DNA of 64,000 nucleotides from Okamejei kenojei. Taxonomy: Eukaryota. Where the stretch lies: positions 42,904,001 to 42,968,000 of the forward strand of contig CM069140.1 of assembly GCA_035221665.1 (NCBI GenBank), in the 5' to 3' direction. Each line of letters starts with the position of its first letter. Within the stretch, counting starts at the first letter, position 1. Under the pieces are notes generated by a model. That model saw nothing but the letters and a program-made list of their open reading frames with translations, made no database searches and was not told where the DNA came from. Shown one piece after another: positions 3,436 to 59,099 of this stretch. A program made the position numbers and the translations under genes.

Positions 3436-3613
3436 AGTTGAACTTTGGCGAGTACCAGGTGAATCACTTGGCATCAGTATTGTTGGTGGTAACACAGTAA
3501 TAAAAAGGCTAAAAAATGGTGAAGAATTAAGAGGAATTTTTATTAAACATGTCTTGGAGGAGAGTCCAGCTGGAAGATCCAATGCTTTGAAGACAGGAGA
3601 CAAAATTATTGAG
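3436..3613 (+). CDS. PATJ: PATJ/INADL internal coding exon, N-terminal part of a PDZ domain
   Basis: Polypyrimidine acceptor ttttccttccAG, donor GAG|GTAAAT. Translates [59 protein letters not shown]. The [24 protein letters not shown] motif is characteristic of PATJ rather than MPDZ. Confidence 0.92.
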
Positions 3614-4091
3614 GTAAATTATTTTGCAAGATATTATGATTGTTTCAATCACTCTGTTTGTTCTTAATGAGCTATAGTAACGTCTGCCATAGTTGATGAT
3701 TGTGGATGACTGTTCCACTGAAGATTTTCTTTAAGGTGCTCAGAGCAGCAAAGATAAACATGCACATTAAAGCATGCAATCAAAGCAGTATGATGTACAG
3801 ATATAGAACTATTTGTACTGTCATTTAAACATTATGCTAAAGTTAAAATGTGCCATAGCATTCAGGGCATTTTTTTAATTTAAGGGCATTCACTTAATGA
3901 TTTTGGAGTAATTTTTTGGGTGGTCTCAGTAAATCACCTTTTTTCATTGAATCTTGTTTTGATAATTCTGTAAGTACAATATTTATTTGACTTAAATAGG
4001 TAGATTTTTGTGAGGATGGGAATTTTTTCTTTAAAATGGACTTACTTTGTTCAGAAAGTCTTCACTTCCCATTATTCCAAAGTTCAATGAT

Positions 4092-4617
4092 TTAGTCAAC
4101 AAAATAGAGAGAGTAGTCAACAAAATAGAGAGAGTACAGAGGAGATTTACTAGAATGTTGCCAGGGTTCCAGCAACTATGTTACAGAGAAAGGTTGAACA
4201 AGTTAGGTCTTTATTCTTTGGAGCGCAGAAGGTTAAGGGGGGACTTGATTGAGGTCTTTAAAATGATGAAAGGGATAGACAGAGTTGACGTGGATACGTT
4301 TTTCCCATTGAGGGTAGGGAAGATTCAAACAAGAGGGCATGACATGAGAATTAAGGGACAGAGGTTTAGGGGTAACGTGAGGGGGAACTTCTTTACTCAG
4401 AGGGTGGTGGCTGTGTGGAATGAGCTTCCAGCAGAAGTGGTGGAGGCAGGATCGATTTTAACATTTAAAAGTAAAGTGGATAGGTATATGGACGTGAAGG
4501 GAATGGAGGGGTATGGTCTGAGTGCAGGTAGATGGGACTAGGGGAAAACAAATGGTCGGCACGGACTGGAAGGGCCGAGAGGGCCTGTTTCCGTGCTGTA
4601 ATTGTTATATGGTAATA
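4092..4617 (+). mobile_element. CR1 (HER1-like) LINE 3' end, young subfamily
   Basis: ORF ...IERVQRRFTRMLPG...SLERRRLRGDLIEVFK...RGH...FFTQRVVAVWNELP; near-identical to 57285-57790; short duplication TAGTCAACAAAATAGAGAGAG at the 5' junction. Confidence 0.9.
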
Positions 4618-5450: not shown

Positions 5451-5886
5451 CTTCCAAAAATCCAAACAAACCGCATCCACTAGTTCATCCTTATCTAATT
5501 TTTATACAATGGCATGCAAAAGTTTTCATACCCCTTGAACTTTTCCACATTTTGTCACGTTACAACCACAAACGTAAATGTATTTTATTGGGTATTTTAT
5601 GTGATAGACCAACACAAAGTGGCGCATAATTGTGAAGTGGAATGAAAATGATACATGGTTTTCAAATTTTTTTACAAATAAAAAACTGAAAAGTGTGGCG
5701 TGCAAATGTATTCAGCCCCCTTTACTCTGATACCCCTAAATAAAATCCAGTGCAACCAATTGCCTTCAGAAGTCACCTAATTAGTAAATAGAGTCAACTT
5801 GTGTGTAATCTAATCTCAGTATAAATACAGCTGTTATGTGAAGGCCTCAGAGGTTTGTTAGAGACCATTAGTGAACAAACAGCATC

Positions 5887-7028
5887 ATGAAGCCCAAGGA
5901 ACACACCAGACATGTCAGGGATAATGTAGTGGAGAAGTTTAAAGCAGGGTTAGGTTATAAAAAAATATCCCAAGCTTTGAACATCTCACAGAGCACTGTT
6001 CAATCTATCATCCAAAAATGGAAAGAGTATGGCACAACTGCAAACCTACCAAGACATGGCCGTCCACCTAAACTGACAGGCCAGGCAAGGAGAGCATTGA
6101 TCAGAGAAGCAGCCAAGAGGCCCATAATAACTCTGGAGGAGCTGTAGAGATCCACAGCTCAGGTGGGAGAATCTGTCCACAGGATAACTATTAGTCGTGC
6201 ACTCCACAAATCGGGCCTTTATGGAAGAGTGGCAAGAAGAAAGCCATTGTTGAAACAAAGCCATAAGAAGTCCCGTTTGCAGTTTGCCACAAGCCATGTG
6301 GGGGACACAGCAAACATGTGGAGGAAGGTGCTCTGGTCTGATGAGACCAAAATGGAAGTTTTTGGCCTAAATGCAAAATGCTATGTGTGGCGGAAAACTA
6401 ACACTGCACATCACCCTGAACACATCATCCCCACTGTGAAACATGGTGGTGGCAGCATCGTGCTGTGGGGATGCTTTTCTTCAGCAGGGACAGAGAAGCT
6501 GGTCAGAGTTGATGGGAAGATGGATGGAGCCAAATACAGGGCAATCTTGGAAGAAAACCTGTTAGAGTCTGCAAAAGACTTGAGACTGGGGTGGAGGTTC
6601 ACCTTCCAGCAGGACAACGACCCTAAACATACAGCCAGAGCTACAATGGAATGGTTTAGATCAAAGCATGTTCTTGTTCTCGGGGTATTTAAACCTAAAT
6701 TTTATTTGTCGATTAAGTTATGACATCGGATGGAAGTTGCAAACCAAATCTCGTTGCACTTATGTGTAATGACAATAAAAGATATTATTATTATTATGTG
6801 TTAGAATAGCCCAGTGAAAGTCCAGACCTAAATCCAATTGAGAATCTCTGGCAAGTCTTGAAAATTGCTGTTCACAGACGCTCTCCATCCAATCTGACTG
6901 AGCTTCAGCTATTTTGCAAAGAAGAATGGGCAAAAATTTCAGTCTCTAGATGTACAAAGCTGGTAGAGACATACCCCAAAAGACTTGCAGCTGTAATTGC
7001 AGCGAAAGGTGGTTTTATAAAGTATTGA
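5887..7028 (+). pseudogene. Tc1 DD34E transposase pseudogene
   Basis: In-frame TAG at 6145-6147, a further stop near 6807, and a ~120-bp insertion at 6674-6795. Confidence 0.88.
6674..6795 (+). mobile_element. short non-LTR retroelement 3' end inserted in the Tc1 transposase
   Basis: Interrupts SKH|VLEWPSQ; ends GACAATAAAAGA(TAT)n, like Rex1/Babar tails. Confidence 0.6.
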
Positions 7029-8839: not shown

Positions 8840-8950
8840 GTTTCTGGCATTGACCTGCAAAATGCCACACATGATGAGGCAGTGGATGCCATAAAAAACG
8901 TTGGAAATCCAATTATTTTTGTGGTTCAAAGTTTATTGCCTACTCGACGA
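8840..8950 (+). CDS. PATJ: PATJ/INADL internal coding exon, C-terminal part of the same PDZ domain
   Basis: ttttacAG|GTT...CGA|GTGAGT; 111 bp, phase 0/0; [37 protein letters not shown] continues the previous exon in frame. Confidence 0.92.
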
Positions 8951-11407: not shown

Positions 11408-11476
11408 CCATATTCTGTATATCAAAGTATACCTGAACAAAAACAAGAACAAAAACAAGAAAAAGAAAAGAAAATA
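11408..11476 (+). CDS. PATJ: PATJ/INADL linker exon
   Basis: tttcttttttaacAG acceptor, GTAAGT donor; 69 bp, phase 0/0; PYSVYQSIPEQKQEQKQEKEKKI keeps the frame between flanking exons. Confidence 0.75.
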
Positions 11477-16644: not shown

Positions 16645-16795
16645 ACTCCGGGCTCTATTAGAGGTGGCCCACCACCACCCATGCGACTGCCCCCACCTTA
16701 CAAAGAGCCTACAAGTGAGAAATTGTCAGTACTGGAGGAGCGAGAAGAATTACCAAATACTGGCAGGATTCCAAAGGAAGAAAATGAGTGTGACC
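16645..16795 (+). CDS. PATJ: PATJ/INADL coding exon with proline-rich PPPMRLPPPY motif
   Basis: ttcctcttttAG acceptor, GTAAGT donor, ends in phase 1; TPGSIRGGPPPPMRLPPPYKEPTSEKLSVLEEREELPNTGRIPKEENECD resembles PATJ APPPMKLPPPYK. Confidence 0.88.
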
Positions 16796-24381: not shown

Positions 24382-24733
24382 CCATTTCAAGCAGAGTGCA
24401 AGGTCACCAAATTCAAATCCATTTTCCTACCATTTCAAGCAGGGTGCAAGGCCACCAAATTCAAGTGCAGTTTCATACCATTTCAAGGAGGGTGCAAGGC
24501 CACCAAATTCAAATGCAGTTTAATACCACATCAAGCAGGGTGCAAGGCCACCAAATTCAAGTGCAGTTTCCAACACTTCAAGCAGGGTGCAAGGCCACCA
24601 AATTCAAGTGCAGTTTAATACCATTTCAAGGAAGGTGCAAGGTCACCAAATTCAAATGCAGTTTCATACCATTTCATGCAGGGTGCAACAACACCACATT
24701 CAAATGCAGTTTCATACCATTTCAAGCAGGGTG
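24382..24733. repeat. 48-bp minisatellite, ~7.3 copies
   Basis: Unit CCATTTCAAGCAGGGTGCAAGGCCACCAAATTCAAGTGCAGTTTCATA. Confidence 0.92.
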
Positions 24734-25330: not shown

Positions 25331-25609
25331 ACCTCTCCCCCTCCCTTCCCACCCTCTCCTCGCCTCCCTTCCCACCCTCTCCTACCCTCCACCCCCTCTC
25401 CCTCTGACTCTTGCCCCTCTCTCTGCCCCCTCTCTCTGTCTCTGCCCCTTCTCGTTCTGCCCTCACTCTCTACCCCCCCCCCCCCGCCCCCAGAAGCGCC
25501 TGCCAGTTGGGGGCTATGCGTCAGTAGATAGGGCCGTTATGGGGTAAAAGGAGCAAATTAATATAATATCAAGGGGTAGTTAGCTTGTGTGTGTGATGCC
25601 GCATGCTGC

Positions 25610-26980
25610 CCCCCCCCCCCGCAATCCCATCCCCTCCACCTCATCCCTCCTCTTCTCTCCCCCCTCCTCTTCTCTCTCCCCTCCACCTTCTCTCTCTCCC
25701 CCTCCTCTCTCTCCCCACCGTCTCTTACCCCTCCTCTCTCTCCCCTCCTCTGTCTCCCCCTCCACTCACGCCTTCTCCTCTCTCCCCCTCCAATCCCTCT
25801 CCCCTCCCCACTCCCCATCTCCCCTGCCCTCTCTCCTCCATCTCTACCACCCTCTACCCCCCTTCCCCTCCACCCCCCTTCCCCTCCACCCCCCTCCACT
25901 CCCCATCCATCCTCCACCTCTTATTCTCCTCCCCCCTTCTCCACCATCCTCTCCTCTTATCTCCCCCTCCTCTTCTCTCCCCCTCCACCTCTCCCCCCTC
26001 CTCCTCTCCCCCTCCTTTTGTCTGCCCCCTCCAATTCTCCCCTCCTCTTCTCCCCTCCAACTCTCCCCCTCCCCTCCCTCCCTCCTCCTCTCCTCCTCCC
26101 CTCTCCCTCCCCCTCTACTCTCTCTCTCTCTCTCTTCCCTCTATCTCTCCCCGCTAATCTCTCTCCCCCCTCCGTCCCTCTCACCCCCTGCCTTTCCCCC
26201 ACTCTCCCTTCTCTCGCTCCCCCTTCTCTCGCTCCCTCTTCTCTCTGTCCCCCCTTCTCTCTCTCTCTCTCCCCCTTCTCTCTCTCTCCCCCTTCTCTCA
26301 TCTCCCCCCTCCTCTCTCCCCCCTCAACTCTCCCCTCCACTCTCTCCCCCTCTCCTCTCATCCCCTCCAATCTATCTCCTCCTCTCCCCCTCCACTCTCT
26401 CCTCCCCCTCCACTCTCTCCCCCCCTCCTCTCTCCCCCCTCCACTCTCTCCCCCCTCCACTCTCTCCCCCCCTCCACTCTCTCTCCCCCCCTCCACTCTC
26501 TCTCCCCCCTCCACTCTCTCTCCCCTCCACTCTCTTCCCCTCCACTCTCCCCCTCTCTCTCTCTCCCCCTCCAATCTCTCTCCACCTCTCTCTCCTCCTC
26601 CTCCCCTCCCCTCTCCCTTCCCCTCTCCTCTCCCTTCCCCTTCCCCTCCCCCACCATTCTCTTCCCCTACATACCCTCCCCTCTCTCCCCCCTTCCCCTA
26701 CCCCTGTCTCCCCCTTCACCCACCTCGTTCTCCTCCCCTCCCCATCCTCACCCCCCTCTCTCCCCCCTCCCCCCCCCCACCCACCTCTGTCCTCCACCCT
26801 CTCTCCTCCACCCTCTCTCCTCCCCCCTCTCTCCACTCCCTCTCTCTTCATCCTATTTCCTCACCCTCTCTCCTCACATTCTCCTCACCCTTCTCTCCTC
26901 ACCCCTCTCCCCATCTTCTCCCTCTCTCCCTCCTCCACTCCCTCCCCTCCTCCTCCCTCCCCCTCTCTCCCCATCCCCAA
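25610..26980. repeat. polypyrimidine/polypurine (C/T-rich) low-complexity tract
   Basis: ~1.4 kb almost entirely C/T on +, with internal CCCTCCACTCTCTC repeats. Confidence 0.95.
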
Positions 26981-27539
26981 ATTCAGTATTCCTAGCCTTT
27001 CAGCCTCAGATTCGTTCTTGGATTATTTCTCCTCTGTGCAAAATATACTGGTTAAAGGGACAATGTGTGGATTGTTTTCGAAGAGAAAAAGAGGCGGGTT
27101 TTCAAAGAGAAAAAGTAGGAGGTTTACTCCTGAGATAAGGCATCTGCTGTGCTATTTCACTGCTTGTATTTCTGGTATTGACAATTTTTTTCCTAGATAC
27201 AATTCCTTTTACAATTCTAGTAAAATGTTGCCTTTTTCCTGTCGCTTTATGAAAATGGGAAACTGATACAAAAAAAATGGATGTACAATTTAGGATCAGA
27301 ACAAAGTTCTTTATTATTCTGGGAAAAAAATGTTAGAAACACTCAACAAGGGAGGTAGCATCTGTGGAGAGAAGCAGTTAATTTCAGATCCAGGACCTTC
27401 ATTCACTTGACTTCCATCTGCAGTATTTTTTGCTTTTCTATTATTGCTCTGTGTTGTTAACAACAATTTACCACAGAAGATGAAAACAGAGAACATCAAT
27501 AGTCAGGAAATCTGTTAGAGCAAGCTTTTACGTGAGTCA

Positions 27540-29576: not shown

Positions 29577-30179
29577 TTAAGGTTGGCAACAGCTAGAACA
29601 TTATGTCTCCAGTTGTTCTGCCACAGCCCTATTTATGCAGGGCAACCCAAGGTAAAACCTATGTCAATATGTCATGTGCTCAGTTTCATTCTCCCCATGA
29701 GTGAATGTCATACAATGTTATGCTGCAAAAATTTTTTTGCTGCAGTCCCCATTTTATTTATTTATTTTCATTCATAATTACTGCAGTAGTATTCCAAGCG
29801 TTGTGTTACTTGCTATATAAATACTTATAATCCACAACTGATCATTCATAGAATCTGTAAACACTGTTTATAGAAAACTGCACACTTTCTTATTACATAA
29901 CTAATCTGAATTTGAATTATTTATAATCTCATTTCTGCATAGGAAAATGTTGAAGATAATGTTGAATAAAAAATATAATGTTCATACAAAATAGATCTTT
30001 TATTAAAGTACATATATGTTGGTTGATGTCATGATAGCATGTTTAAGGTTATTCCTCACCATCCGTGATTAGAATACTGGAAATTAAAGCCACTAATCTT
30101 GATTAGACTACATCAAAAATTAAAGGAAGGTTAGATTTTCCTAAATTAACATGTCAGAATTTTCTTACCTGAAATAACT

Positions 30180-30653
30180 GCTGTCTGAAGTCCTGGTTAT
30201 TATTCAGCAGGAGTGCAGGCCATGAACACGGAATAAAATGCAGCATTATATGACATCATTGTCTGTTTGAGAATACAAATCAATCGAGGCATCCGAAAAG
30301 AGCTGTTAGTGGAACATTGGTAGAACAGACTAGTCCGACAGGCCTCAGAAACACTGCTTGACTGGATTAAGTGTGGATGATCAATGCCGTGCTTTGATGC
30401 TGTTCTGTCCACTGCCTTCTGCTTGTTTCATTAGCTTGGAACACAATTAAATGTGCTGGCATGCCATATCACTTGGTATTAAATTAGGATAATTGATTGT
30501 TGGTGATAAATGAAGAAGACATGACGACTTGCCCTTAAGGAGAAAAATCTCACGAGATTTCTCATGAGTGATTAGAAAGCTGAGGGACAGACTTTCAGAG
30601 CTCAGCGGCAACTGCACAGGGATGCAATTGTCTGACAATTAACAAGAGCAGAT
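30180..30653 (+). promoter_or_regulatory. putative internal promoter / 5'UTR of the short PATJ isoform
   Basis: Repeat-free block immediately upstream of the ATG at 30654; CRE/AP-1-like TGACATCA at 30251-30258. The TSS is unknown. Confidence 0.45.
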
Positions 30654-30675
30654 ATGGTGCAAGGTGGGTTTCCAG
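30654..30675 (+). CDS. PATJ: alternative first coding exon of PATJ (CIPP-type short isoform)
   Basis: ATG GTG CAA GGT GGG TTT CCA G|GTAAGA = MVQGGFP, phase 1 (same as the 16645-16795 donor). Recalled mouse CIPP N-terminus MVHGGFPEKIRQRY; not checked against a database. Confidence 0.8.
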
Positions 30676-31519
30676 GTAAGAATACAGAAATTTATGATTG
30701 TCATGCTAGAAAGATAGCTATTTGAATTGCGAGTGAGAAAAATCTTTCTTATACCATATATCATTTTACTCTCAGGAAATCAACACCTATTTATTCAAGC
30801 GTGGAGCAATTTTCAAATGAATTTAACTACTGAGACTGCAGTGCATTTTAAATATTGGGTAGTTACTATATCAATCGATGGTGAAAAATGTCCTTAAAGA
30901 ATTAACTATTTTGTTGACAGGAAAGGTGAGGATATGAGACCGATTGTAATTACACTCTCATTGTTGTAATTTATTTTTATCAGGGCATCACATACACCAG
31001 AACCAGCCCCTGCCTTTTCCCCCCCAAAAAGGCAGTGTTATTTTAAACTTTATACCTTTACCCTAGATTCTCATTTGAAGCACAGATACTTATATAATCT
31101 CATTGACATTCATGAAACAAAATCTTGTGATTCGAGACTGTCATACAGATGGGCCAATTTAGGTTATTTTTCTGCTAGAACAACTAACAATACCTTAATA
31201 GCATTTGTAGGCAGATCGGAGGTAAATTTGAAGGTGATATTGGGGTAAAGCTACAATGTTTCATTATCTGTTAAAGTGAAAATCCAGCTCTGACTTCAGC
31301 AGTCTAAACCCTTTAGTGTGGAAATATAGCCATGCACAAATTCATTTTTCAGATTATTATTATCTTTGTGCTTATGTTACTATGTTGTAGCATTTTTGTT
31401 TTTTTTTCCCCAAATATATGTGACATGTATTAAATTAATTAGAAACCTCAGTTTAGCAATCTCTTCTTCAATGGCATCATAGATTTACAAAGCAGTGCCT
31501 TGGTACAGCATCGTTCACT

Positions 31520-32328
31520 CAGAAGATGTGATGGTGGTTGGTGGGGGGCGCTGCGAGTCGGCTGCCCTGCCAGCAACGTGTTCGTTATTTCAACTTTTTT
31601 TGTTTTTATTGGTGTGTCTAAATGTTAGTTTAGGTGTCTCTTGGTGTGTGTTGTGTGAGGGGAAGGGGGGAACCGCTTTTGGTCGCCTCCTCGACGTAGA
31701 GGCGACTTTTTCCATGTCGCCTCCCTCGCGGCCTAACAGAGTGGATTGGAGCGGCCTTTCCCGGAGTCGGGCCCAGAGCTTCAATAGTGGGCGCAGCGTG
31801 GACTTTTCCATCCTGGAGCGGGCGAACCCTTGCCGGGGAATACCAGAGAGGAGTGCTCCGATTGCTAGCCTGGTGACTTTGACATCATGGGGCTGCGGTC
31901 TGCGGAGCTTCTAGCCAAGGACATGGCGTGGACTTGCCATCCGGAGTCTGGGATCCCTTACCGGGGATGGCCGGAGAAGAGCTCCGACCACCGGCCTGCG
32001 GCCTGTATAACATCCTGAAGCCGCGGTCTCCAGTAGGAAAGTCAGGCACTCCACAGAGTGTGTTTGACCGTCCTTGGTTTGATCATCCCGAAGTTTGATC
32101 ATCCTGACGAGAGTGCCTGTACATCGGGTCGTCCCTTAGCAGTGACTACGGAGGGTTTATGGCCCCGACCATGGATGAACATAGGAGGAGGACTGACTGA
32201 ACTGGTGGTGGATGTTTGTGTTAAATTCTATTGGGTATGGTGTGTTCTTTTTAAGTGTATCACTGCTGGAAAATTCATTTCACTGCACTTTTTGGTGCAA
32301 GTGACGAATAAAATTGACTTTGACTTTG
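31520..32328 (+). mobile_element. non-coding GC-rich non-autonomous retroelement (LINE-dependent)
   Basis: CpG-rich block in an AT-rich intron ending TTTCACTGCACTTTTTGGTGCAAGTGACGAATAAAA(TTGACT)n, a Rex1/RTE-like 3' tail; no RT motif. Confidence 0.55.
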
Positions 32329-35679: not shown

Positions 35680-37810
35680 AATTTATTGATCCCCTCAGGG
35701 AAATTCAGATGTCCAGAAGCCCCCAACCAACAAATCCACACATTCAAAACGAACGCAGACAGAAAAATACATAAAATACAATAAAATACAATGTGGACAC
35801 TACCTGAGAGCAATAAATACTTTAAAAAGACCAATAATTAACAATTAAAATTTAAAAAATCCAAAAATGCATCCCCCTACAGCCTAGTGAACCGAATTAT
35901 AAAATCTAATGGCTGCAGGGTTGAAAGATCTCCTGAACCGCTCCGTTCTACAGGGCAGGGAAAGGAGCCGGTTGTTGTTCCGAGTGCTCTGTTGACCCTC
36001 CAGAATTACATGGAGGGGATGCCCGGGGTTTTTCAGGATGACCTGCACCGTACGTCATATACGCCTCTCAAGCACATCCATCCCAGAGTCCACTCTCCCC
36101 TCCAGCACTGAGCTAGCTCGTTTAACCAGTTTGTTCAGTTTCTTGTTGTTTTTTGCACTAATGCTGTTGCCCCGGCAGAGAACAGCGTAGAAAGTGACAC
36201 TTGCAACCACAGTGTTGTAAAACATGTGCAGCATATCATTACGCACATTGAAGGATTTGAGCCTTCTGAGGAAAAAGAGTCTGCTCTGGCCTTTTTTGCA
36301 GAGGGCGTCAGAGTTGACAGACCAGTCCAGTTTATTATCCAGGTGCACTCCAAGGTATTTATATGTCTGCACCACCTCAATATCAGCCCCTGCAGCGTTG
36401 ACCGGCTGAAGGGGGAGCTTGGACCTGCCAAAGTTAACCACCATCTCTTTAGTCTTAGTTGTGTTCAGGATGAGGCAGTTCTCTTTACTCCAGGCACAGA
36501 AGGCACTGGTCGAGTTCCTGTATTCCTCCTCTTGCCCGTTCCGTACACATGCCACAATCGCTGTGTCATCTGAATATTTCTGTACGTGGCATGTGTCAGA
36601 TTTATGTCTGCAGTATACAGGGTGAAGAGGAATGGGGCCAGAACTGTTCCCTGTGGGGCTCCAACATTGCACACTACTGTCCCGGAAACACAGTCCCCCA
36701 GCTTAACAAACTGTGGTCGACCCGTCAGGTAGTTGTATATCCAGGAGATAAAGGTGGAGTCCACCCCCATCTTCTTAAGCTTGTCTTTCAGAATCAGGGG
36801 TTGGATGGTGTTGAACGCACTTGAGAAGTCAAAGAACATAATCCTCACATAGCCACCTGGTTCGTCCAAAAAGGAGTAAATCCGGTGCAGCATGTAGAGG
36901 AGTGCGTCATCCACCCCAATGTTCTCCTGGTATGCAAACTGTAGTGGATCTAGTGCGTGCTCGACTTGTGGTCTCAGGAGACAAATAAGTAGCTGCTCCA
37001 TTGTCTTCATGATATGGGATGTGAGGGCCACCGGTCTGTAGTCGTTGATCTCGGTCGGCCGCCCTGCTTTGGGAACCGGCACGAGACATGTTTTCCACAG
37101 ATCTGGTACCCTCCCTGACGGGAGACTCAGGTTGAAAATGGTCTAGAGAGACTCCGCCAGCTGAGCCGCACAGTCTTTCAGTAGCCTGGGACATACACCA
37201 TCAGGGCCAGCTGCTTTACCAGGGCGCAGCCTCCTCAGCTCAGCTCTCACCTCGTCCGCCGTGAAGAACAGTTGAGGAGATGCTGGCATGGGAGGTGCTG
37301 CAGCTGTGGTGTTGGGGCGGCTGCCTCGTGGAGGTGATGGTGGGGGAGAGGCTGCGCCTGTGGAGGTGGGAGGGGATACCAGGTCAAACCTGTTATAGAA
37401 CAGGTTAAACTCATTGGCCTTATCCACGTCTCATTACGGCAGGTTTCTCTTCTCCTTGAAGCCAGTGATGGTCTTCATTCCTCTCCACACCTCTTTGATG
37501 TTGTTCTGCTGTAGTTTCCTCTCCAGCTTCCTTTTATCATCCCCTTTTGCCTGCTTCATGCTCCTTTTCAGGTGGTGCTGTACCCTCTTGATCTTTTCCC
37601 GGTCACCAACCTTGAAAGCCTCCTTTTTCTCGTTTAGGAGGCTCTTGATGTTGCTTGTAATCCAAGGTTTGTTATTGGGAAAGCAACAAACAGTTCTTAC
37701 TGGCACAACAACATCCCTACAGAAGTTGATGTAGTCCGTTATGCATTCAGCCATCCTGTCGATGTCCATACTGCTGTTGAATTCCAGTGGCTCCATCAGT
37801 ATGTCTCAGT
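35680..37810 (-). mobile_element. Rex1/Babar LINE, 5'-truncated, frameshifted RT
   Basis: NDYRPVALTSHIMK, DPLQFAY, FFDFSSAFNTIQP, GAPQGTVLAPFLF, KYSDD, YKYLGV. Confidence 0.92.
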
Positions 37811-44013: not shown

Positions 44014-44985
44014 TTATATTGATCCCAACACCGCGTGGCCAAAGCTTGTCATAGTGTGAACAGGTTTATTGTAGAACTTTGAAAAAGTTTCTTCTTTACT
44101 CCACCCTGCGATTTTTAAAATATGCTCGAGTGGTACGTCCCGCACCTTCGCCGCGGACGTAGCTGCAGCCCTGGTGGAGTGAGATTTGAACACATCAGTG
44201 TCTACTCCTGCTAAAAGCAACACCTGTTTCAACCATTTTGAGATAGTTTGAACTGAAGCTTTTGTGTGTGGCTTTTTATGCGTAATCATTAACATTTTTT
44301 CATTTCCTCGAAGAGTTTCAGTAACTTTAACATATTGATTTAAATGTTTAACCACACACAAAGTAGGATCAATAGCATAAGCTTGAAAGGTTACCTTAGC
44401 TCCAGATCTCCCTGGTCTGCTTTGTTTGATCAGATCGTAAACATAGAACACAATGTTATCTATAGTCACATGCATACAGTCTAAACGCAACATTTGTAAA
44501 GTTTGCACTCTTTGAGCTGAAACCAATGACATTAACATTATTAATTTCAATGTTAATCTTTCCAATGACAATCCTTCAATTGGAGTCCATTGCCTAAGTA
44601 AGGTAAGTACAATGCTCACATCCCAAATCTCTGTGTACCTTGGTTTGGGTGGATTGATGTTAAAGATTCCTTTCATGAATCTAGATATTAATGGATGTGA
44701 TCCAATTGATTTCTGGTCAGACATTAGTCCTAAATAAGATGATAAGGCACTGCGTGCAGTGTTAATGGCACTGTAACTTAAATGTTGCTCAAAATGCAAT
44801 TTGGCAAGGAACTCCAAAACATTTGCAATATTCACAGTATCATAAGAAATATTTGACTGTGTGCAAAATTCTTCCCATTTCTTTATATGTGTCATATATT
44901 GTTTTTGTGTGCTATCTCGCCATGATGTGACTATAACTTCCATAATTTTGTCCGACAATCCCAGCTCCTGTAGTGGTCTGGTCAA
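44014..44985 (-). CDS. DIRS1 tyrosine recombinase (open frame, 323 aa)
   Basis: SAQRVQ (R), IKQSR (K), HSTR (H-x-x-R), AGW, FSKFY (Y); N-terminal SAM-like domain with YSAINTARSALS. Confidence 0.9.
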   Translation of the reverse strand: MTRPLQELGLSDKIMEVIVTSWRDSTQKQYMTHIKKWEEFCTQSNISYDTVNIANVLEFLAKLHFEQHLSYSAINTARSALSSYLGLMSDQKSIGSHPLISRFMKGIFNINPPKPRYTEIWDVSIVLTLLRQWTPIEGLSLERLTLKLIMLMSLVSAQRVQTLQMLRLDCMHVTIDNIVFYVYDLIKQSRPGRSGAKVTFQAYAIDPTLCVVKHLNQYVKVTETLRGNEKMLMITHKKPHTKASVQTISKWLKQVLLLAGVDTDVFKSHSTRAAATSAAKVRDVPLEHILKIAGWSKEETFSKFYNKPVHTMTSFGHAVLGSI

Positions 44986-45029
44986 AACCTGCAGATTAAT
45001 AAATTCATATATGCATATAATGGATAAAT

Positions 45030-46860
45030 TTATTTAGTTACTGGATTAATCAAAATATCACTACAGTTAGGAATTGACATATATGGTTCTTTAATCATAT
45101 TCAGCATTAATGGGAACCAAGGTTGTGTTGGCCAATTTGGAACTACCAACAATCCAGTGGCAGAATCTTGTTCTATTTTCTTCAGACATTTCTGAATCAA
45201 AGCAAATGGTGGAAAAGCATAAAAGAACATATTCCCCAGTTCAATGAAAAAGCATCTACTGCTACTGCATCTGGATCGTGTTCCCAAGACACATATTTAG
45301 GCAATTGATGATTAAGCCTTGATGCAAACAGATCAATTTCTGGTAAACCAAATTGGGTTACAATATTCTTAAATATTGCTGGATTAAGCATCCATTCTGT
45401 GTTATCTTTAAATATCCTTGATCTTTTATCTGCCACCACATTGTCTTTACCTGGAATGTAATTTGCTGAAATCCAAATTTGGCGGTCAATACACCATTGC
45501 CATATTTCATTGACCAGACAATCACATGATACTGATCTAACTCCCCCCATGTGATTAATATATGCAACCGCCGTTTTATTGTCTAACTGTATTAATACAT
45601 GTAGACCCTTTTTTGAACAACAATATGCTTTTAGTCCATAGAAAGCACCCAATAACTCTAAATAGTTAATACCATAAGTTTGAAGAAACATTTCTTCTTG
45701 AACTTTCCATCTACCTCCACAACTGGAGGATGAATCTGTTGCCCCCCATCCGAGAGCACTAGCATCTGTTTGTAAAACCATTTCAGGCTGTTTAATCAGA
45801 ATGTTTTTAGCAGCTTGTGGGACATTTTTAACCCACCATTGTAATTCCAACACAGCTTCTTTTGTTAATTGCATAGGCCTATCAAAGTGGCCTGCCTTCT
45901 CTTTGAGAGCTCTTATTTTGTCCCTTTGAAGATTTTGATAGTGTAATGGACCAAATTCTACTGCAGGAAATGCTGCTACTAGTTTACCAATGGTTTTCGC
46001 TACTTCTCGGATGGAAGGATAAGGTTTGTGAATGAGATTATTACAAGTTACCAAAATATCATCAACTTTTATCTGTTGGTAAAGTTACTAACATAGTCAC
46101 TGAATTAATTACAAACCCCAAAAAGTTAATTGATTGTGCTGGCTGCAGCTGGGACTTAATTGGATGAATCAAGAACCCTAGCTTTTCAAACAAAGCTTTA
46201 GTAACTGAAACTGAGTTCTCACCTGACTCTTGATTATCATTAATGATTAGAATGTCATCGAGATAAGCCATAACGATGTGTTTTTGTGCTCTTAATTGGG
46301 CTAAGACTGGTTTCAACAGTTTCGTAAAGAGCCTGGGAGCTGAACTCAGTCCATTTGGCAAAGCTTTAAACTGCCATAATTGTCCCAGCCAATTAAATTT
46401 TAAGTACCTCCGGAAACTCTGATGTATCTTTTAAATCAATCTTAGCCATATAACAACCTGCTGAAATTAAATATCTTACAGTATTAAATGTTTCCATTTT
46501 AAAATGTTTGTATTCTACAAACTTATTTAGATCTGTAAGGTCCAGAATAATTCTGCAACCACCATCTTTTTTATTTCTCCGAAAAATGTTAGAGACAAAT
46601 TGATGCTCGTGTTCATAAGTTTTTTCAATTACCCCTTTTCCAGATAATTTGTCAATTTCCACATTAATCTCTGCTTTATCAATAGCAGTAAACACGAAAG
46701 CGTAAGCAGGTCTATTCTGTACAGGCGGATTAACCCCTTCTTTAAATGTAATAGTGGCTCCTGAAACTGCTTGTAATATAAATCGATCAGAAGTAATAGT
46801 AAGCCAGTCTTTATAAAACTTTTGTAATCTCCCTCCAACTGGAGATTTATCCGCAGTTTC
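45030..46860 (-). pseudogene. DIRS1 pol (RT, RNase H, adenine-methyltransferase-like), frameshifted
   Basis: PVGGRL, IILDL, IDLKD (following AYY motif lost, frameshift), LPNGLSSAPRLF, YLDD, TDAS..GWG, INYLEL, DNKTAV, DLFAS and YAFPPF, split over four ORFs. Confidence 0.9.
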
Positions 46861-48096
46861 TTTAAGGATAAAACAAGTCTTTAATACCTCTCCATATGAG
46901 CGTGGTGGTCTCCTTCTCCCTGAATATGGGTAAGCATTGGGCTGTGCCGGACGATAATACTTCCTTGACAAATTTCTGCCTCTATTTCCAAAGTCAAAAC
47001 CCCTTCGGGGCGAAAAATATCTTTTTTGTCCAAAGACGAAAGGTTTCACACCGCTAAAATATTTAGCTTCTTCATCCAACTCTTTCAGTTGTTTAGGCAG
47101 ATTTTCTCCAAACAGATACCCAGGAGCTTGAACACCACTTGCTCGACACAGGCTTGCAAATCTAGGGTGAAATATGGGCCGAATCGCCATTTTCCTCATA
47201 CAGTTAATTTCATAGAAAGAATTGCACAATAAGCCCAAAGTATCTTTTTGAATCTTATCCATCTCCAATCTCTCCATTTGTCTCCCATAGGCCGTAACGG
47301 CAGCAGAAATTAGTTTGAGGGTTTTTTGAAATCTCACTTCTTGAGCTCTCATACTTGGAGTCATGGATGTCCATATCAACGGATTAACCGTAGGCACTTC
47401 CAATGAGGCACAATTTCCTGGTGTCTTATATAATTCTGATGTTTCAATCATCACAGAATCTTGAAGTTGGTGAGATACCATATAATTAATACTGGCAGCT
47501 AGGTTTTCTTCCATAGCCTCACCACTTCCTTCAGGTATAGCAAATTCTTTTGCTATCCCAGGCACATTTGGCCTTTTCTTTTTATTTTGTGGTGTGCATT
47601 CAAAATCCAAATCACCACCAGCAGGGTCTGCCTTCTGCAGCCCTAAATCAATTGGGATTTCACCCCATGAGACTTCTTCCAGCCCAAATCCTGGGTCCGG
47701 AGTTTCAAACTCCCAACTTGGCACACAGCCATATTCAGAATAATCAAACCCCTCAGAGCTTTTTTGGGATCCTTCTGGGTTCTGTGACCCTTGTCTCATG
47801 ATTTTTTGGAGAACTTTCTCCATATGCTCCATTTTTAACCACATAGTTTTATTATCTGGAGGACTTTCAGTATCAGAGTCATCAGAAACCACGGGCCTCT
47901 CAGATTTCTTTTTACATTTTTTAGGAGCATTTCCCTCCGTGGTTATTATTGCTGGAGAATCTAGAAACTCGCTATCGGGTATATCAGCGGCCACCGGTAT
48001 CGGAACCGGATCCGCACTAGCTTCTTGTCCCGTATTTTTATTTTCACCCCGGGAAGATCTTTTTACCCGCGAATTTCTCTTTGCCGATTTCTCCAT
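46860..48096 (-). CDS. DIRS1 gag-like ORF1
   Basis: First ATG at 48096; PGNC..L.VP.VNP.IW and LFGENL motifs of DIRS ORF1. Reads through in frame into pol in this copy, so the gag/pol boundary is approximate. Confidence 0.7.
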
Positions 48097-48974
48097 TTTC
48101 TTTATTATCAGTGCTAAATCAGCACGTTTACGCGACTCTGAATTTTTACTTTTACTTTCGCTTGCTGGGCCCACCCAGCGTACGCTAAAAAACATCCCGA
48201 CTTTGCTGCACTTACCTGCGGGGCCGTTCCGACCGCTGCGAGGAGCTGCTCCTTACTGCAGCTCCTCCTTCCGCCGTCAGCGTCGACGTAATGCCGTTTG
48301 CCAGCGTGAGGCGGGTTCTTCACGTAGTCACTCACGTGACTCCGAAGTAAAATCAAAATAGTGCAGAACATGGAGGGGAAACTTTAGGTTATAATACAAA
48401 CACAAAAGGCTGGGAAACCAGCAGCTCAGGCAGCATCTAGGCAAAGAGAGACAATCAATGTTTCAGGCCCGTCACAGCGCTGAATTGTAGACTGTTTATC
48501 TTTCCACAGATGCTGCATACCTACTCAGCATTTTCCATTTTTTTATTTCAGCATTCCAACATCTGCTGTTCTTTTAAAAAAAAAATGTCAACATGAATGG
48601 AGTGGTGTTTTCCATCACCTGCTATGCTTGACCTTGGTGGAAGAGGTTGAACATTTTGGGAATGCTGTCAGGTTATGATTTGATTATTTCAGAGATGGTG
48701 TTTAGATGAATAGTATTAATCACTATAATAGAATTATTACTTTGGATTGCTCTCTCACACAGTGTGTTAAATTGAATAACACTGCTAGTTTAAGTGCTGT
48801 CTCTCAGTCTCCACAGCAAAATTTGCCAGTATGGCAGACATACTTTGGTTTTGAACCTTACCTCTTGGGGGAATTGCAATCAAACTTCTCAATGTTTTTG
48901 CTTGGTGGGAACACCAAAATGTAATGGTCCGTCTGTTGAATATTTTGACTACGAATCAAAAATAAAAGAGCTAA

Positions 48975-49793: not shown

Positions 49794-52270
49794 TGTTCTC
49801 ACACTGGTTAGGGTATAAGCATCTTTAATGTTCAGCTCATCATCACATAAGCAGTACATCATCAAACATTCAGTCTACTGCAGCTACTGAAGACAGTATA
49901 AAGCATGCATTAGGCGGAGTTATAATTACTAAGCATTCTGATTGGCTAACATGCAATAGCCAATCTACATCTCTTCTTGTAGAAATTAAAAAGCAACTAA
50001 GGCACTTTAAACGGTAAGCTGAGGGAATAATAGTAGGGTTAAACAAAATCGGCATATCTAATGGGTGGCCTACTAACTCGCCCGGTCCTCATGCGGAAGG
50101 CGGCCTCATTACCCATTTCTTCCGAAAAGATGGGGGCTGGGGTAGGTAATACCGTGGGCCTGTGGGGCGAGACCGCCGTGGGGGAACCGACGCGGGGAGC
50201 CCGGGGTACCGGTAACAACAGGAGACGCAGGGGCAGACCGCCGTGGGGAGTGGGCAGACTTGGCCGCAGCAAGTGGTGGAACAGCTGCAACAGGCGTTGG
50301 TGTGAGCACAAGCGGTGGGGCATCAGGACCCGGGGGCGCCAGAAGAAAAGGGTAATTAGGCCCCCTTCCGCACGAAGACTGGGCGGGTTAGCAGGCCACC
50401 CATTAGATATGGTGATTTTATTTAAACCCACTATTATTCCCTCAGCTTACCATTTAAAGTGCCTTAGTTGCTTTTTCTTGGTGGTTACGACCATGGTGGA
50501 GACCCAGTCAGAGGATTCGCTGACCTCGGCAATGGCTCCATTGGAGACCATGCATTTAAGTTTGGCGTGTATTTTCTCCCGCAGGCCATGGGGCCGCGGT
50601 GGGGCGCGAACTATTGGTGTTACAGCATGATCTACAGTGATCTTGCATATCGTAGGCAGCTTGCCAAGTTTGTCGGCAAACAGGTCTTTGTACTGGGATA
50701 GCATCTGCTGTGTTGGTTCCTCTGTCAGGCAGAGTTTGTGGACAGCACTCCCGAAATAAACCAGCCCCAGGTCAAGGCATGCATTGATGCCAAGCAGGGT
50801 TTCAGAGTTAGGTTGGACAATGTAAAACATCAGGTTTTTATTTAGCTCGTTGACGATGCATTTTAAATCAGCTTTATCCAATTCCCCGCCGTAGGCATGT
50901 AGGGTGGAGGAGTCCTTTTTCATTAGTTCAGTGGTCCTTATCTTGTTGAACTCCCTGAGTGACATTACGTTCACCTTTGCACCAGTGTCGACCATGGCGG
51001 TCATAGCCTTGTTGTTTATTACCATGGTCACCGCAGGATCCAGTAGCTTGCCAGAGGAGTGCAGGAGGGACAGCACGGCTGAGTAGTTGTCTGTGTTATC
51101 GGAATCATATTCGTGGGAAACATTGTCTTCCTCTTGGGATAAGAGTCAGGCAGCTCTTGTTGAAGCAGGTGCAGATTTGTCCTTGAAGCAGTGTTCCCAC
51201 GAGATCGACAACATGTGGTAAAATGATTAAGCTTCTTGCAGTTGCAACAAACTTTCCCATGGGCGACACAAAACTGGCGCCCCCTAGAGTGGAAATAATT
51301 GCAGTTGGGGCACCTTGTGGCAGGCATATTGGGATCATTGCGAGACGCGTTTAAGAATTTCTGCGGAGAGTAGTTAGCTAGATTTACGTTATATTGCTGT
51401 TGAGGGCTGGCAGGGTCAAAATCTGCTAGTGGAGCCACGGTCTCTGCCATTCGACACGAATGAGTGGCTTGTTCTAAAGTCAGTTCAGCATTCCGAAGCA
51501 GTTCAGCTCTTAGCTTGCGGTCGCTCATTCCTCCCACAATTTTATCGCGTACAAGCTCGTTAGTCAACTCACCGAAGTGGCACCATGTAGCCATGTGTTG
51601 TAAATCGCTGATAAATCACTCGACAGGTTCATCGATCTGCTGCTGTCGGGCGAAGAATCATGTTCTCTCGAGGATGCGGTTCGAGGGCAGTTTGCATAGT
51701 TCTCTAAACTTTCCCAGTAGGACCGTAGGATCGATAGTTTCAGCTGGCACCAGGACCTGACCATTCGCATCAAGGTGTGCTGGGGCGAATTCAAAGTTAT
51801 CTGCACGAATCATTGCTTCCGGACCCGCTAGATTGAGTAGTAGCGATGCCTTCAGATTGTCGTGATCGTTCCAGTGAACAATGCGGATATAGTGAGCATA
51901 GCCACGCTCAAACATTCGCCAACGCTCGGCTATGTCAGAATCAAACACAAGGGGACTTGGCTTTCAGCAGGAGTTGGCCATGTCGTCAAAATCAATCACA
52001 AATAAAAACTGATAAAAGAAAATAAATCGCAATTAACAGACGAGGGTTGGACCCAGTTTTCTGTCACCATGTAAGCACCTCACTCTCAAACTGGTTAGGG
52101 TATAAGCATCTTTAATGTTCAGCTCATCATCACATAAGCAGTACATCATACATTCAGTCTACTGCAGCTACTGAATACAGTAGGCAAGTTCTTACACTAT
52201 AAAGCATGCAATGGGCAGAGTTATAAATACTAAGCATTCTGATTGGCTAACATGCAATAGCCAATCTACA
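49794..52270 (-). mobile_element. non-autonomous Gypsy LTR retrotransposon (gag + protease only)
   Basis: LTRs 52070-52270 and 49794-49969 (TGT..ACA); PBS TGGTGACAGAA (tRNA-Leu-like); PPT AAGAAGAGA; gag with CCHC-like knuckles; protease VDTGA; RT, RH and IN cores absent; short (A)GAC target duplication. Confidence 0.9.
50447..51981 (-). pseudogene. Gypsy gag-protease pseudogene
   Basis: ATG 51981, early stop and frameshifts; FGELTNELVRDKIVGG, CCNCKKLNHFTTCC, AMVDTGAKVNVM; RT start SDWVSTMVV then truncated. Confidence 0.85.
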
Positions 52271-52939: not shown

Positions 52940-54168
52940 TTTTTTTTTTGTAAAATATTTTTATTAGAAGTAATTACATATTAAGAAATAATATAAGATC
53001 AAAGACAAAGAAAAAAATATTATCGTCACATAATTCTTAATATTTTAAACTTTTACAGTCACTCTTATCTATACTTCAATATATATATTTTTTATTTTAT
53101 AACAGTAGGAAATAGGTAATAAAGAGAAAAAGAGATAAAAAGAGATAACTTAATGAGTGGAGTATTAAACAAGATATTCTTCATTGGAGATATATTCATG
53201 ATCTATTGTATATAATTCTTCATCTATTCATTCATTCAGGCTTCAGTCATGGACTCGAACCGGACCATCTTAACCCTTTAAATATTCAATAAATGGAGAC
53301 CATATTCCTCTGAATTGATCCAACCTGTCCATCAGGACAAGTCTTAGTCGTTCCAGATGAAGTGTCTCCGACATTTCTGTAATCCATATTTTAATTGTAG
53401 GGGAAATGGGACCTTTCCAAAATCTTAGTATAAATTTTTTACCAATTATTAAACTATAACCAATAAAAATTATTTGTTGTGTTGTTAATATCTGATTCGT
53501 TTCTAGTATTCCCAATATGATTAATTTTGAATCTGGAATTAAATTAGCATTAACTACAATTGAGATTATTTTAAACATTTCCATCCAAAAATTAGTAATT
53601 TTTATACATTTTGTAAATAAATGCGTTAAATTAGCTTCTAATTGTTGACATTTATCGCATATCGCGGAAACATTTGAGAAAATTCTATTTAATTTAGATT
53701 TTGAGAGATGTAATCTATGTATAACTTTAAATTGTATCAAGGAGTGTCTGGCATTTAATGAACAGTGATGTATATGTTGTAAACTTTCATTCCATACTTC
53801 TCTACTAATTACTTGACCTAATTCGTTTTCCCATGCTTGTCTATATTTATCCGTATTTGGTAGATCATTTTCCAGAAGATATTATAGATATATGATATTA
53901 ATTTTTCTGTATTCGGATGTTTATTTAGACATTCATCTAAAATTTCTGTCTTTCTATTCCTAAAATCTATTGTATTTGATTTAACATAATCTCTAATTTG
54001 TAGATATCTAAAATATTCTTTGGAATGTAATCCATAATTTTGTTGTAATTCCTGAAATGAGAAAAATAAACTTTCCCTGTAGAGATCGCCAATCTTATTT
54101 ATTCCATAGTTCTTCCATTTTAAAAAACCTTTATCCATCAATGAAGGTTTAAAAGAAATATTGTTTAC
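52940..54168 (-). mobile_element. L1/Tx1-clade LINE, 5'-truncated
   Basis: IQFKVIHRLHLSK..ICDKC..HLFTKC..WSPF; poly-T at left; TSD TATCTGGTTAAATA (52923-52936, 54169-54182). Confidence 0.85.
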
Positions 54169-54231
54169 TATCTGGTTAAATATCTGAGTTTCCCATTGGA
54201 TTTCCCAGTGATTGTTGTATGCATAACCCTC

Positions 54232-54530
54232 GCGGCAGCATGGTGATGCATCTGTTGCCTCACTGCTCCAACAGGTCATGTTCAATCCTGATCATTGACA
54301 TTGTCTGTGGGAAATTTGCAGGTTCCCCTTGTGACAACATGGGTTACCACCCACATCACAAGGATGTGCAAGTTAGTAGATTAAGTGGCTGTTGAAATTG
54401 GCTCTAATGCAAATGAGTGGTAGAATCTGGAGGGAACTGATGTGGATGGAGGGGGAAATAAAATTGTGTTAGTGTAAGTAGGTACCTGATTGCTAGTATG
54501 GACTCAGTGGGTTGAAAGCTGAGTTCGATG
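54232..54530 (+). mobile_element. degenerate HE1-like V-SINE
   Basis: GGCAGCATGGTG..GTTGCCTCACTGCTCCA..GTTCAATCCTGA head and CCCACATC.CAAG V-domain. Confidence 0.6.
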
Positions 54531-57284: not shown

Positions 57285-58807
57285 ATCATATAACCATATA
57301 ACAATTACAGCACGAAAACAGGCCCTCTCGGCCATTCCAGTCTGTGCCGACCATTTGTTTTCCCCTAGTCCCATCTACCTGCACTCAGACCATACCCCTC
57401 CATTCCCTTCCCGTCCATATACCTATTCACTTTACTTTTAAATGTTAAAATCAATCCTGCCTCCACCACTTCTGCTGGAAGCTCATTCCACACAGCCACC
57501 ACCCTCTGAGTAAAGAAATTCCCCCTCACGTTACCCCTAAACTTCTGTCCCTTAATTCTCATGTCATGCCCTCTTGTTTGAATCCTCCCTACCCTCAATG
57601 GGAAAAGCTTATCCACGTCAACTCTGTCTATCCCTTTCATCATTTTAAAGACCTTAATCAAGTCCCCCCTTAACCTTCTGCGCTCCAAAGAATAAAGACC
57701 TAACTTGTTCAACCTTTCTCTGTAAGATAGTTGCTGGAACCCAGGCAACATTCTAGTAAATCTCCTCTGTACTATTTTGTTGACATCCTTCCTATAATTA
57801 GGTGACCAAAATTGTACACCATACTCCAGAATTGGTCTTACCAATGCCTTGTACAATTTTAACATTACCTCCCTACTCCTATATTCAATGCTCTGAATTA
57901 TAAAAGGCCAGCACACCAAAGGCTTTCTTTACCACCCTTTCTACATGTGATTCCACCTTCAGGGAACTATGCACAGTTATTCCTAGATCTCTCTGTTCCA
58001 CAGCATTCATCAATTCCCTACCATTTACCATGTATGTCCTATTTTGATTTGTCCTGCCAAGATGTAGCACTTCACACTTATCAGCATTAAACTCTATCTG
58101 CCATCTGTCAGCCCACTTTTCCAAATGGCCCAAATCTCTCTGTAGACTTTGAAAATCTACTTCATTATCCACAACACCGCCTATCTTAGTATCATCTGCA
58201 TACTTACTTATCCAATTTTCCACCCCATCATCCAGATCATTGATGTACATGACAAACAACAGTGGATCCAACACAGATCCCTGAGGCACCCCACTGGTCA
58301 CCGGCTTCCAACCTGACAAACAGCCATCCACCATTACTCTCTGACATCTCCCATTCAGCCACTGTTGAATCCATCTTGCTACTCTGCCATTAACACCCAA
58401 AGATTGAACCTTCTTAACCAACCTTTCATGGGGAACCTTGTCAAAGGCCTTATTGAAATCCATATAGACAACATCCACTGCTTTACCCTCATCAATTTCC
58501 CTAGTAACCGCTTCAAAAAATTCAAGGTTTGTCAAACATGACCTTCCAGGCACAAATCCATGTTGACTGTTCCTGATCAGACCCTGTTTATCCAGATGCT
58601 TATATATATTATCTCTAAGTATCCTTTCCATTAATTTGCCCACCACTGATGTCAAACTAACAGGTCTATAATTGCTAGGTTTATTCTTTGAACCCTTGTT
58701 AAACAATGGAACAACATGCGCAGTACGCCAATCCTCCGGCACTATTCCTGTTTCTAATGACATTTGAAATATTTCTGTCATAGCTCCTGCTATTCCTACA
58801 CTAACTA
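57285..58807 (-). mobile_element. CR1 (HER1-like) LINE, RT and 3' end
   Basis: NYRPVSLTSVVGK, QHGF, VYMDFNKAFDKVPH, GVPQGSVL, YADD; one frameshift at ~57900; ends abruptly at ~58807. Confidence 0.93.
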
Positions 58808-59099
58808 ACAAACCATCCTTTGTCAGTTTAAATAATGATGCCTTTCCTAATTTTGTCAATGTGACGTCATTAGATACCAATTCGAGATGGTATCCATGAT
58901 TTTTTTTTTTTTCCTTTTCCATTTCCTAATCTATTTATATTGAAGATAATCATAGCCCATCATTGTTAAGAGCTTTTCAAACTCAAATATTGGCCACAAG
59001 TTTGAGGTTGCCAAAGAAGAGCAGGTACTTACCATTCATCATAAAGTAAATGCCCAACAAGCTTTCAACAACTGGAAGTGGTAATTTTTTTATCCAAAT

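Follow-up and report, generated by a model that had tools for sequence, protein, structure and literature searches.

Our results indicate that a 22-nt coding exon within a large intron of PATJ (INADL) in the skate Okamejei kenojei is very probably the orthologue of the start exon of CIPP-type short PATJ isoforms. It lies at positions 30654-30675 of the window, the whole 64,000-nucleotide stretch of DNA that was analysed (GCA_035221665.1, contig CM069140.1, positions 42,904,001 to 42,968,000, forward strand). We consider it likely that the exon opens a short PATJ whose transcript begins at an internal promoter and joins an acceptor shared with the long form, that this start exon is of jawed-vertebrate age, and that the short product would act as a channel scaffold.

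The host gene and the candidate start exon

The assignment of the host gene to PATJ, made at first pass, holds against MPDZ on four kinds of evidence. The exon at 3436-3613 finds its best PDB match in InaD-like protein (1.7e-25, vs 8e-22 for MPDZ) and, in the protein collection, its matches are to PATJ. The plus strand of the window carries five PATJ exons flanked by canonical splice sites; pooled, they are identical at 182 of 192 positions to PATJ of Amblyraja and at 179 of 192 to that of Rhinoraja, with values of about 82% in other rays, 75-84% in sharks and 62-68% in chimaera and bony vertebrates. On the tree, chondrichthyan PATJ proteins stand apart from MPDZ. The exons and the intron that follows them are as follows.

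1734-1805, plus strand: PATJ long-form exon (23 of 23 identical to Amblyraja)
3436-3613, plus strand: PATJ long-form exon, first half of the PDZ domain before the junction (protein matches)
8840-8950, plus strand: PATJ long-form exon, second half of the PDZ domain begun in 3436-3613 (protein matches)
11408-11476, plus strand: 69-nt PATJ exon, left out of some annotated shark and skate isoforms (protein matches)
16645-16795, plus strand: PATJ long-form exon directly upstream of the host intron, proline-rich linker, phase 1, donor GTAAGT (protein matches)
16796-64000, plus strand: host intron, longer than 47 kb, open at the right end of the window (exon search)

Annotated isoforms of Rhinoraja (X5), Carcharodon and Scyliorhinus torazame skip the 69-nt exon. 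The exon at 16645-16795 ends after an Asp codon and one further base, C, before its donor (C/GTAAGT), and in skate long forms the next PATJ exon starts at a KIR motif after Asp-Gln. This downstream exon is absent from the window, where the best tblastn matches were a paralogous PDZ exon (E=0.04) and noise; the KIRQ-type acceptor exon, expected at first pass as the splice partner, thus lies outside. Nor did the plus strand of the window show a terminal exon resembling the end of the Rhincodon model.

When the window sequence is read and translated on the plus strand, the ATG at 30654-30656 opens the heptapeptide MVQGGFP, whose codons run to 30674. A single G at 30675 follows, and then GTAAGA, so that the exon ends CAG/GTAAGA in phase 1; CAGGTAAG is present just twice on the plus strand of the window. 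The features around the start are these.

30633-30635, plus strand: in-frame stop TGA, seven codons before the ATG (sequence)
30648-30657, plus strand: strong start-codon context gcagatATGg, G at -3 and +4 (sequence, Kozak rule)
30654-30675, plus strand: coding part of the putative alternative start exon, seven codons from the ATG (MVQGGFP) and the first base of the junction codon (translation, homology, null models)
30676-30681, plus strand: candidate splice donor GTAAGA, near-consensus (sequence)

The exon sits in the PATJ intron that runs from 16796 onward, and the exon upstream of this intron likewise ends in phase 1. The first-pass annotation had proposed an MVQGGFP exon end with a CAG/GTAAGA donor, in the expected intron and in phase 1, and each of these points is borne out by the sequence and by the phases of both donors; no feature was found to mark the left boundary that it had set at 30180. 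Given the in-frame TGA, the reading frame of the start exon begins after 30635. Under the Kozak rule, G at both -3 and +4 makes a strong start context. At the junction, skate long forms have a Gln codon that begins with C. In the short form G would stand in place of this C, so the split codon (G and the last two bases of the Gln codon) would be read as Glu, as in every amniote short form.

Short PATJ proteins in other vertebrates and the age of the exon

Short forms were sought among proteins of fewer than 1096 aa by comparison with the Amblyraja tail. The best 120 of 375 and the best 120 of 765 matches gave 137 distinct short matches, from which 11 were set aside (8 unnamed, 3 labelled human), leaving 126 to be counted; all counts were taken over cluster representatives. 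Among the matches listed, 34 of these 126 named proteins begin with MVQGGFPE, and they come from 26 genera that include placental mammals, the marsupial Sarcophilus and the birds Melopsittacus and Ficedula. Another five, all from rodents (Rattus rattus, Arvicanthis, Peromyscus, Jaculus), begin with MVHGGFPE, and one (Cebus) differs from the MV[QH]GGFPE start by a single substitution. A start of the form Mx[PQ]E was found in 12 of the 126 (11 teleosts and the aardvark), and other starts in 74, among them fragments of MPDZ, partial models, and bird and reptile models that start inconsistently at the junction. Wherever the heptapeptide occurs, it stands at residue 1. The CIPP-type N-terminus given at first pass is real, with His in the rodent short forms and Gln in those of most other mammals, a marsupial and two birds.

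We infer that the rodent MVHGGFPE forms are CIPP, since the Rattus rattus short form (619 aa) has four PDZ domains, the number with which CIPP is described in the available part of a review (PMC8555555). CIPP is also equated with a PATJ product in the accessible text of PMC7335742, and PMC11014856, in the portion available, merely cites the CIPP paper. Many of the amniote short models were probably projected from mouse or human annotation and not independently observed.

No chondrichthyan short form with the MVQGGFP start appeared among the best 120 of 375 and the best 120 of 765 matches. PATJ long-form models exist for 16 chondrichthyan genera, and the sole short chondrichthyan PATJ match among those listed is a gene-model fragment of Chiloscyllium with a different start. 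This absence is weak evidence, because amphibians and gar show an equal gap and many bird models garble the start exon; among the matches listed, no amphibian, gar or bowfin short form begins with MVQGGFP. A search against representatives at 50% identity had no short protein that scored above the bird short form, itself the representative of its cluster, so that this search carries no weight here. A coding exon of 22 nt is easy to miss in annotation, and the skate exon is probably unannotated. No report of a short PATJ form in cartilaginous fish was found in the literature, which was covered mainly through non-subscription papers.

The exon is common to skate and amniotes, and therefore a start exon of this kind would have existed in the jawed-vertebrate ancestor. 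The first-pass annotation had dated an internal promoter to that ancestor. The date stands for the coding start exon, on the strength of the intron, the phase and the identity of all seven residues between skate and amniotes, and does not extend to the promoter. Skates and amniotes diverged more than 400 million years ago. Comparison of Amblyraja with the budgerigar short form gives an identity of 85-92% in five PDZ domains and of 40-51% in the four long linkers. An identity of 7/7 places the heptapeptide at the level of the PDZ cores and above that of the linkers, which points to purifying selection and implies, on this sequence comparison, that selection acted on the heptapeptide through most of the time since the skate-amniote split.

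Teleosts add a second kind of start. Among the matches listed, 11 teleost proteins begin with M[LV]PE at the PATJ junction and diverge from the teleost long forms just before it. They group with PATJ and not with MPDZ at an SH-aLRT value of 100 (8 of the 11 placed), on a quick version of the tree, computed without bootstrap and without one MPDZ row that offered no anchor. Short PATJ models of teleosts are often mislabelled 'multiple PDZ domain protein-like', and short variants of percomorphs begin with four residues. From the teleost short forms, a short form at the junction can already be deduced for the bony-vertebrate ancestor; the skate exon, as predicted here, adds the chondrichthyan branch and shows the seven-residue start to be the old version. 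It is plausible that the teleost M[LV]P exon is homologous to the MVQGGFP exon; teleosts would have cut down the heptapeptide start or replaced it with M[LV]P. At the level of DNA the analysis is based on one species, Okamejei kenojei, and the other vertebrates were compared as proteins.

None of the MPDZ short models among the matches examined has an MVQGGFP start, so the exon cannot be dated before the PATJ/MPDZ duplication. In several short MPDZ models (bats, a snake, a turtle), the start lies at a common position, one PDZ domain before the PATJ junction; it may be an internal methionine or else an alternative start of its own.

The predicted short product and its possible role

Amblyraja PATJ, used as a proxy, has an L27 domain (9-66) and seven PDZ domains before the junction and six PDZ domains after it; if the exon is the start, the short product lacks L27 and the N-terminal PDZ domains. 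With the 3' part spliced as in the long forms of Amblyraja and Rhinoraja, the skate product would be about 727 aa long and carry six PDZ domains. The description as CIPP-type given at first pass is apt for an L27-less protein with a C-terminal PDZ array, and probably does not extend to a strict four-PDZ CIPP.

Six PDZ domains follow the junction in 15 of 15 chondrichthyan long forms. The second of these tail domains scores 132-166 bits against the Amblyraja copy in all 15 and 86-108 bits in MPDZ, and in none of 18 PATJ proteins from bony vertebrates does the score exceed 33 bits. By profile count, five tail domains are present in 17 of these 18, and bowfin has six, without a match at the position of the second domain. 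From its position, this domain would correspond to PDZ9 of MUPP1. Chondrichthyan PATJ has 12-13 PDZ domains, like MPDZ, and the available text of PMC3162930 gives 13 for MUPP1 and 10 for PATJ. On domain comparison, the domain kept by cartilaginous fish is one that was lost or decayed in bony vertebrates, so that the 10-domain textbook PATJ is a derived form, and the six-PDZ tail layout is probably ancestral. Residues 1423-1502 and 966-1038 of Amblyraja PATJ, encoded outside the window, bear on PDZ retention.

Several known systems resemble the skate exon in part. Mouse CIPP and the rodent MVHGGFPE forms share with it the gene, the intron position, the phase, the lack of L27 and the C-terminal PDZ array; the start of the rodent MVHGGFPE forms is identical at six of seven residues, with His for the skate Gln. 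CIPP has four PDZ domains whereas six are predicted for the skate form, and CIPP has been cloned and tested whereas the skate form is predicted from genomic sequence. The amniote MVQGGFPE models have the same start peptide (7/7), junction residue and order of C-terminal domains, although the short forms of bird and peccary have five PDZ domains and are without the second chondrichthyan tail domain. The teleost M[LV]PE models, of which that of Megalops has five PDZ domains, also start at the PATJ junction, but with only three residues before it instead of seven. MPDZ/MUPP1 shares the 13-PDZ layout and the six-domain tail of chondrichthyan PATJ, and differs in its short models as described above. 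Finally, dystrophin Dp71, Dp116 and G-utrophin have, like skate PATJ, a short coding first exon in a large intron that yields an N-terminally truncated scaffold; dystrophin is unrelated to PATJ and is a precedent for the logic only. Internal-promoter isoforms of dystrophin are described in the available part of PMC1790709 as conserved across gnathostomes, with the Dp71 N-terminal peptide followed down to cartilaginous fish.

In the mechanism that we propose, an internal promoter in the large host intron would start a short transcript whose first exon provides the ATG-initiated seven codons. Splicing from 30675 would use the phase-1 acceptor of the long form, the match in phase being observed and the splice itself predicted. 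The product would drop L27 and the first seven PDZ domains and keep the C-terminal PDZ array. L27 links PATJ to the PALS1/Crumbs polarity complex, and without it the short form should stay out of that complex. By analogy with CIPP, it could work as a free scaffold at the membrane, gathering channels, receptors and phospholipase C beta by binding their C-terminal tails. For mouse CIPP, the available text of PMC8555555 gives Kir4.1, ASIC3 and NMDA receptor subunits, among them GluN2C, as partners, with expression in brain and kidney. The PDZ8-9 tandem of human INADL binds PLC beta 4 (PMC6300352, available part); the PLC-beta-binding tandem of the rat short form is 83-84% identical to that of four chondrichthyans, and the PATJ-type linker is present.

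A bolder reading, which we regard as rather doubtful, holds that PATJ has had two products since the origin of jawed vertebrates, and that the skate retains the ancestral short one: an unannotated six-PDZ scaffold for channels and phospholipase, devoid of L27 but with the PDZ domain that disappeared in bony vertebrates and with a heptapeptide that has a function of its own, at work in neurons, kidney or electrosensory cells of cartilaginous fish. On this reading the heptapeptide may be a targeting, processing or turnover signal. It is invariant in the skate and in the MVQGGFPE forms, yet teleosts manage without four of its residues. For the bird short form, AlphaFold leaves residues 1-5 unstructured, with a pLDDT below 50, and starts a helix at residue 8; no structural role for the heptapeptide is apparent in that model.

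This isoform has been described in mouse and appears in annotations across amniotes, and ancient internal-promoter isoforms are known from dystrophin, so there is no new mechanism here. CIPP has so far been regarded as a mouse peculiarity of PATJ, a polarity gene; the identity of the skate exon would mean that selection has kept the short scaffold for more than 400 million years. PATJ knockouts, disease variants and antibodies would then have to be interpreted with two products in mind, and an isoform-specific handle would be available in the conserved peptide, through a junction primer, an antibody or an exon-specific deletion. The exon also flags an isoform that chondrichthyan annotations have seemingly missed, and the tail of the predicted product shows the presumed ancestral six-PDZ layout.

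The upstream region and competing explanations

The sequence before the ATG contains the following features.

30180-30653, plus strand: region presumed at first pass to be promoter and 5' UTR, an extent left unsupported by the CpG, motif and repeat scans
30432-30434, plus strand: acceptor-like TAG with a pyrimidine tract of 0.82, which would give a 241-nt internal exon (sequence scan)
30622-30642, plus strand: upstream ORF of six codons whose end lies 11 nt before the main ATG, opened by the nearest of 12 upstream ATGs (sequence)

No CpG island was detected in 30180-30653, where the observed/expected ratio is 0.35-0.44 vs 0.40 for the window and the CpG profile is flat. No TATA element was found inside this region or within 800 nt of the ATG, a TATA-like match occurring only at 29814. 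The eukaryotic motif scan gave scattered matches, with two CRE-like sites at 30024 and 30251, which were not counted as evidence. The 474 nt contain 12 ATGs against about 8 expected from the ATG density of the intron, so that upstream ATGs are not depleted; the upstream ORF at 30622-30642, with its putative function, would be relevant only if the transcript begins upstream of it. The folding of the 5' region does not stand out from that of shuffles (z -0.70), and no Rfam family was found in the window. Two tandem near-palindromic 8-mers, which also form a short imperfect hairpin, occupy 30549-30568, about 90 nt upstream of the ATG. The exon lies in a 2-kb stretch (29583-31592) free of internal repeat matches, the third longest in the window; as evidence this is weak, since the repeat test was internal only and left 62% of the window uncovered. 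The start site is probably much nearer to the ATG than 30180, and the alternative is a spliced leader exon.

On that alternative, the exon would be the first coding exon but not the first exon, with a non-coding leader spliced in, for example at the TAG at 30432-30434, and with the promoter elsewhere in the intron. The lack of promoter features beside the ATG is in keeping with this, and the acceptor-like site is as strong as the five real acceptors of the window (0.53-0.88). However, the host intron holds 74 such sites in 47 kb (1.6 per kb), so that one within 500 nt is expected by chance, and use of this one would leave six upstream ATGs in the leader. We give a spliced leader a small chance of being correct.

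It is improbable that the skate has stopped using an ancestral exon, or that the exon is conserved non-coding DNA in which the peptide match is a by-product. Genomes of cartilaginous fish evolve slowly and retain old non-coding elements, so that an exon silenced not long ago might have kept its intact appearance, and no chondrichthyan short model is present among the matches listed. Against this, the ATG, the six further codons, the phase, the donor and the start context are all intact; moreover, an exon of 22 nt is readily overlooked, and several bird and reptile models show unrelated starts at the junction. The jawed-vertebrate age would hold even if the skate exon had been recently silenced.

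A cassette microexon of 24 nt, in frame with the long form, can also be drawn, since the CAG at 30649-30651 would act as its acceptor and yield an exon running from phase 1 to phase 1 without a stop. This candidate was rejected as very improbable: the pyrimidine fraction upstream of the CAG is 0.35, vs 0.53-0.88 at the five real acceptors, and the peptide is internal in none of 244 named proteins.

A chance match is the reading that the length of the intron and the mere 22 coding bases of the exon would favour, and it can be set aside as practically negligible. The comparison is a fair one because the target peptide was set beforehand by the known isoform. Of the 836 plus-strand ATGs in 16796-64000, the runner-up reaches an identity of 4/7 to MV[QH]GGFP, and the best among 1042 minus-strand ATGs is also 4/7. 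The analytic expectation is 8e-6 for the peptide and 8e-8 for the peptide with a donor. Of 200 third-order Markov introns none reached 6/7; the best value, 5/7, was found in 15, and 5/7 with a donor in one. The back-translated degenerate pattern has a single match in the 64 kb even when three mismatches are allowed, and none in 100 shuffles.

Apart from PATJ, the window carries repeats and regions of unusual composition. A long C-rich, strongly skewed stretch without an internal repeat match occupies 58700-64000, and a 1.4-kb low-complexity tract of C and T only (25560-27000) lies about 3.6 kb upstream of the start exon. A CpG-rich patch at 31501-32000 (GC 0.58, observed/expected 0.79), 0.8 kb downstream of the exon, holds a 106-codon open frame on the minus strand and is probably a repeat. 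A tandem array of a 48-bp unit (7.4 copies, 88% matches) is found at 24382-24733. Fragments of LINE reverse transcriptase lie at 4035-4541, 36055-37805, 53270-54291 and 57365-58925, together with a remnant of a Tc1-type transposase at 5875-7028. On the minus strand, 50447-51963 holds what is left of an LTR retrotransposon, with gag-like and aspartyl-protease-like parts, and a near-complete retrotransposon at 44014-48252 combines a gag-like ORF with a reverse transcriptase and a tyrosine recombinase, a combination that suggests a DIRS-like element.
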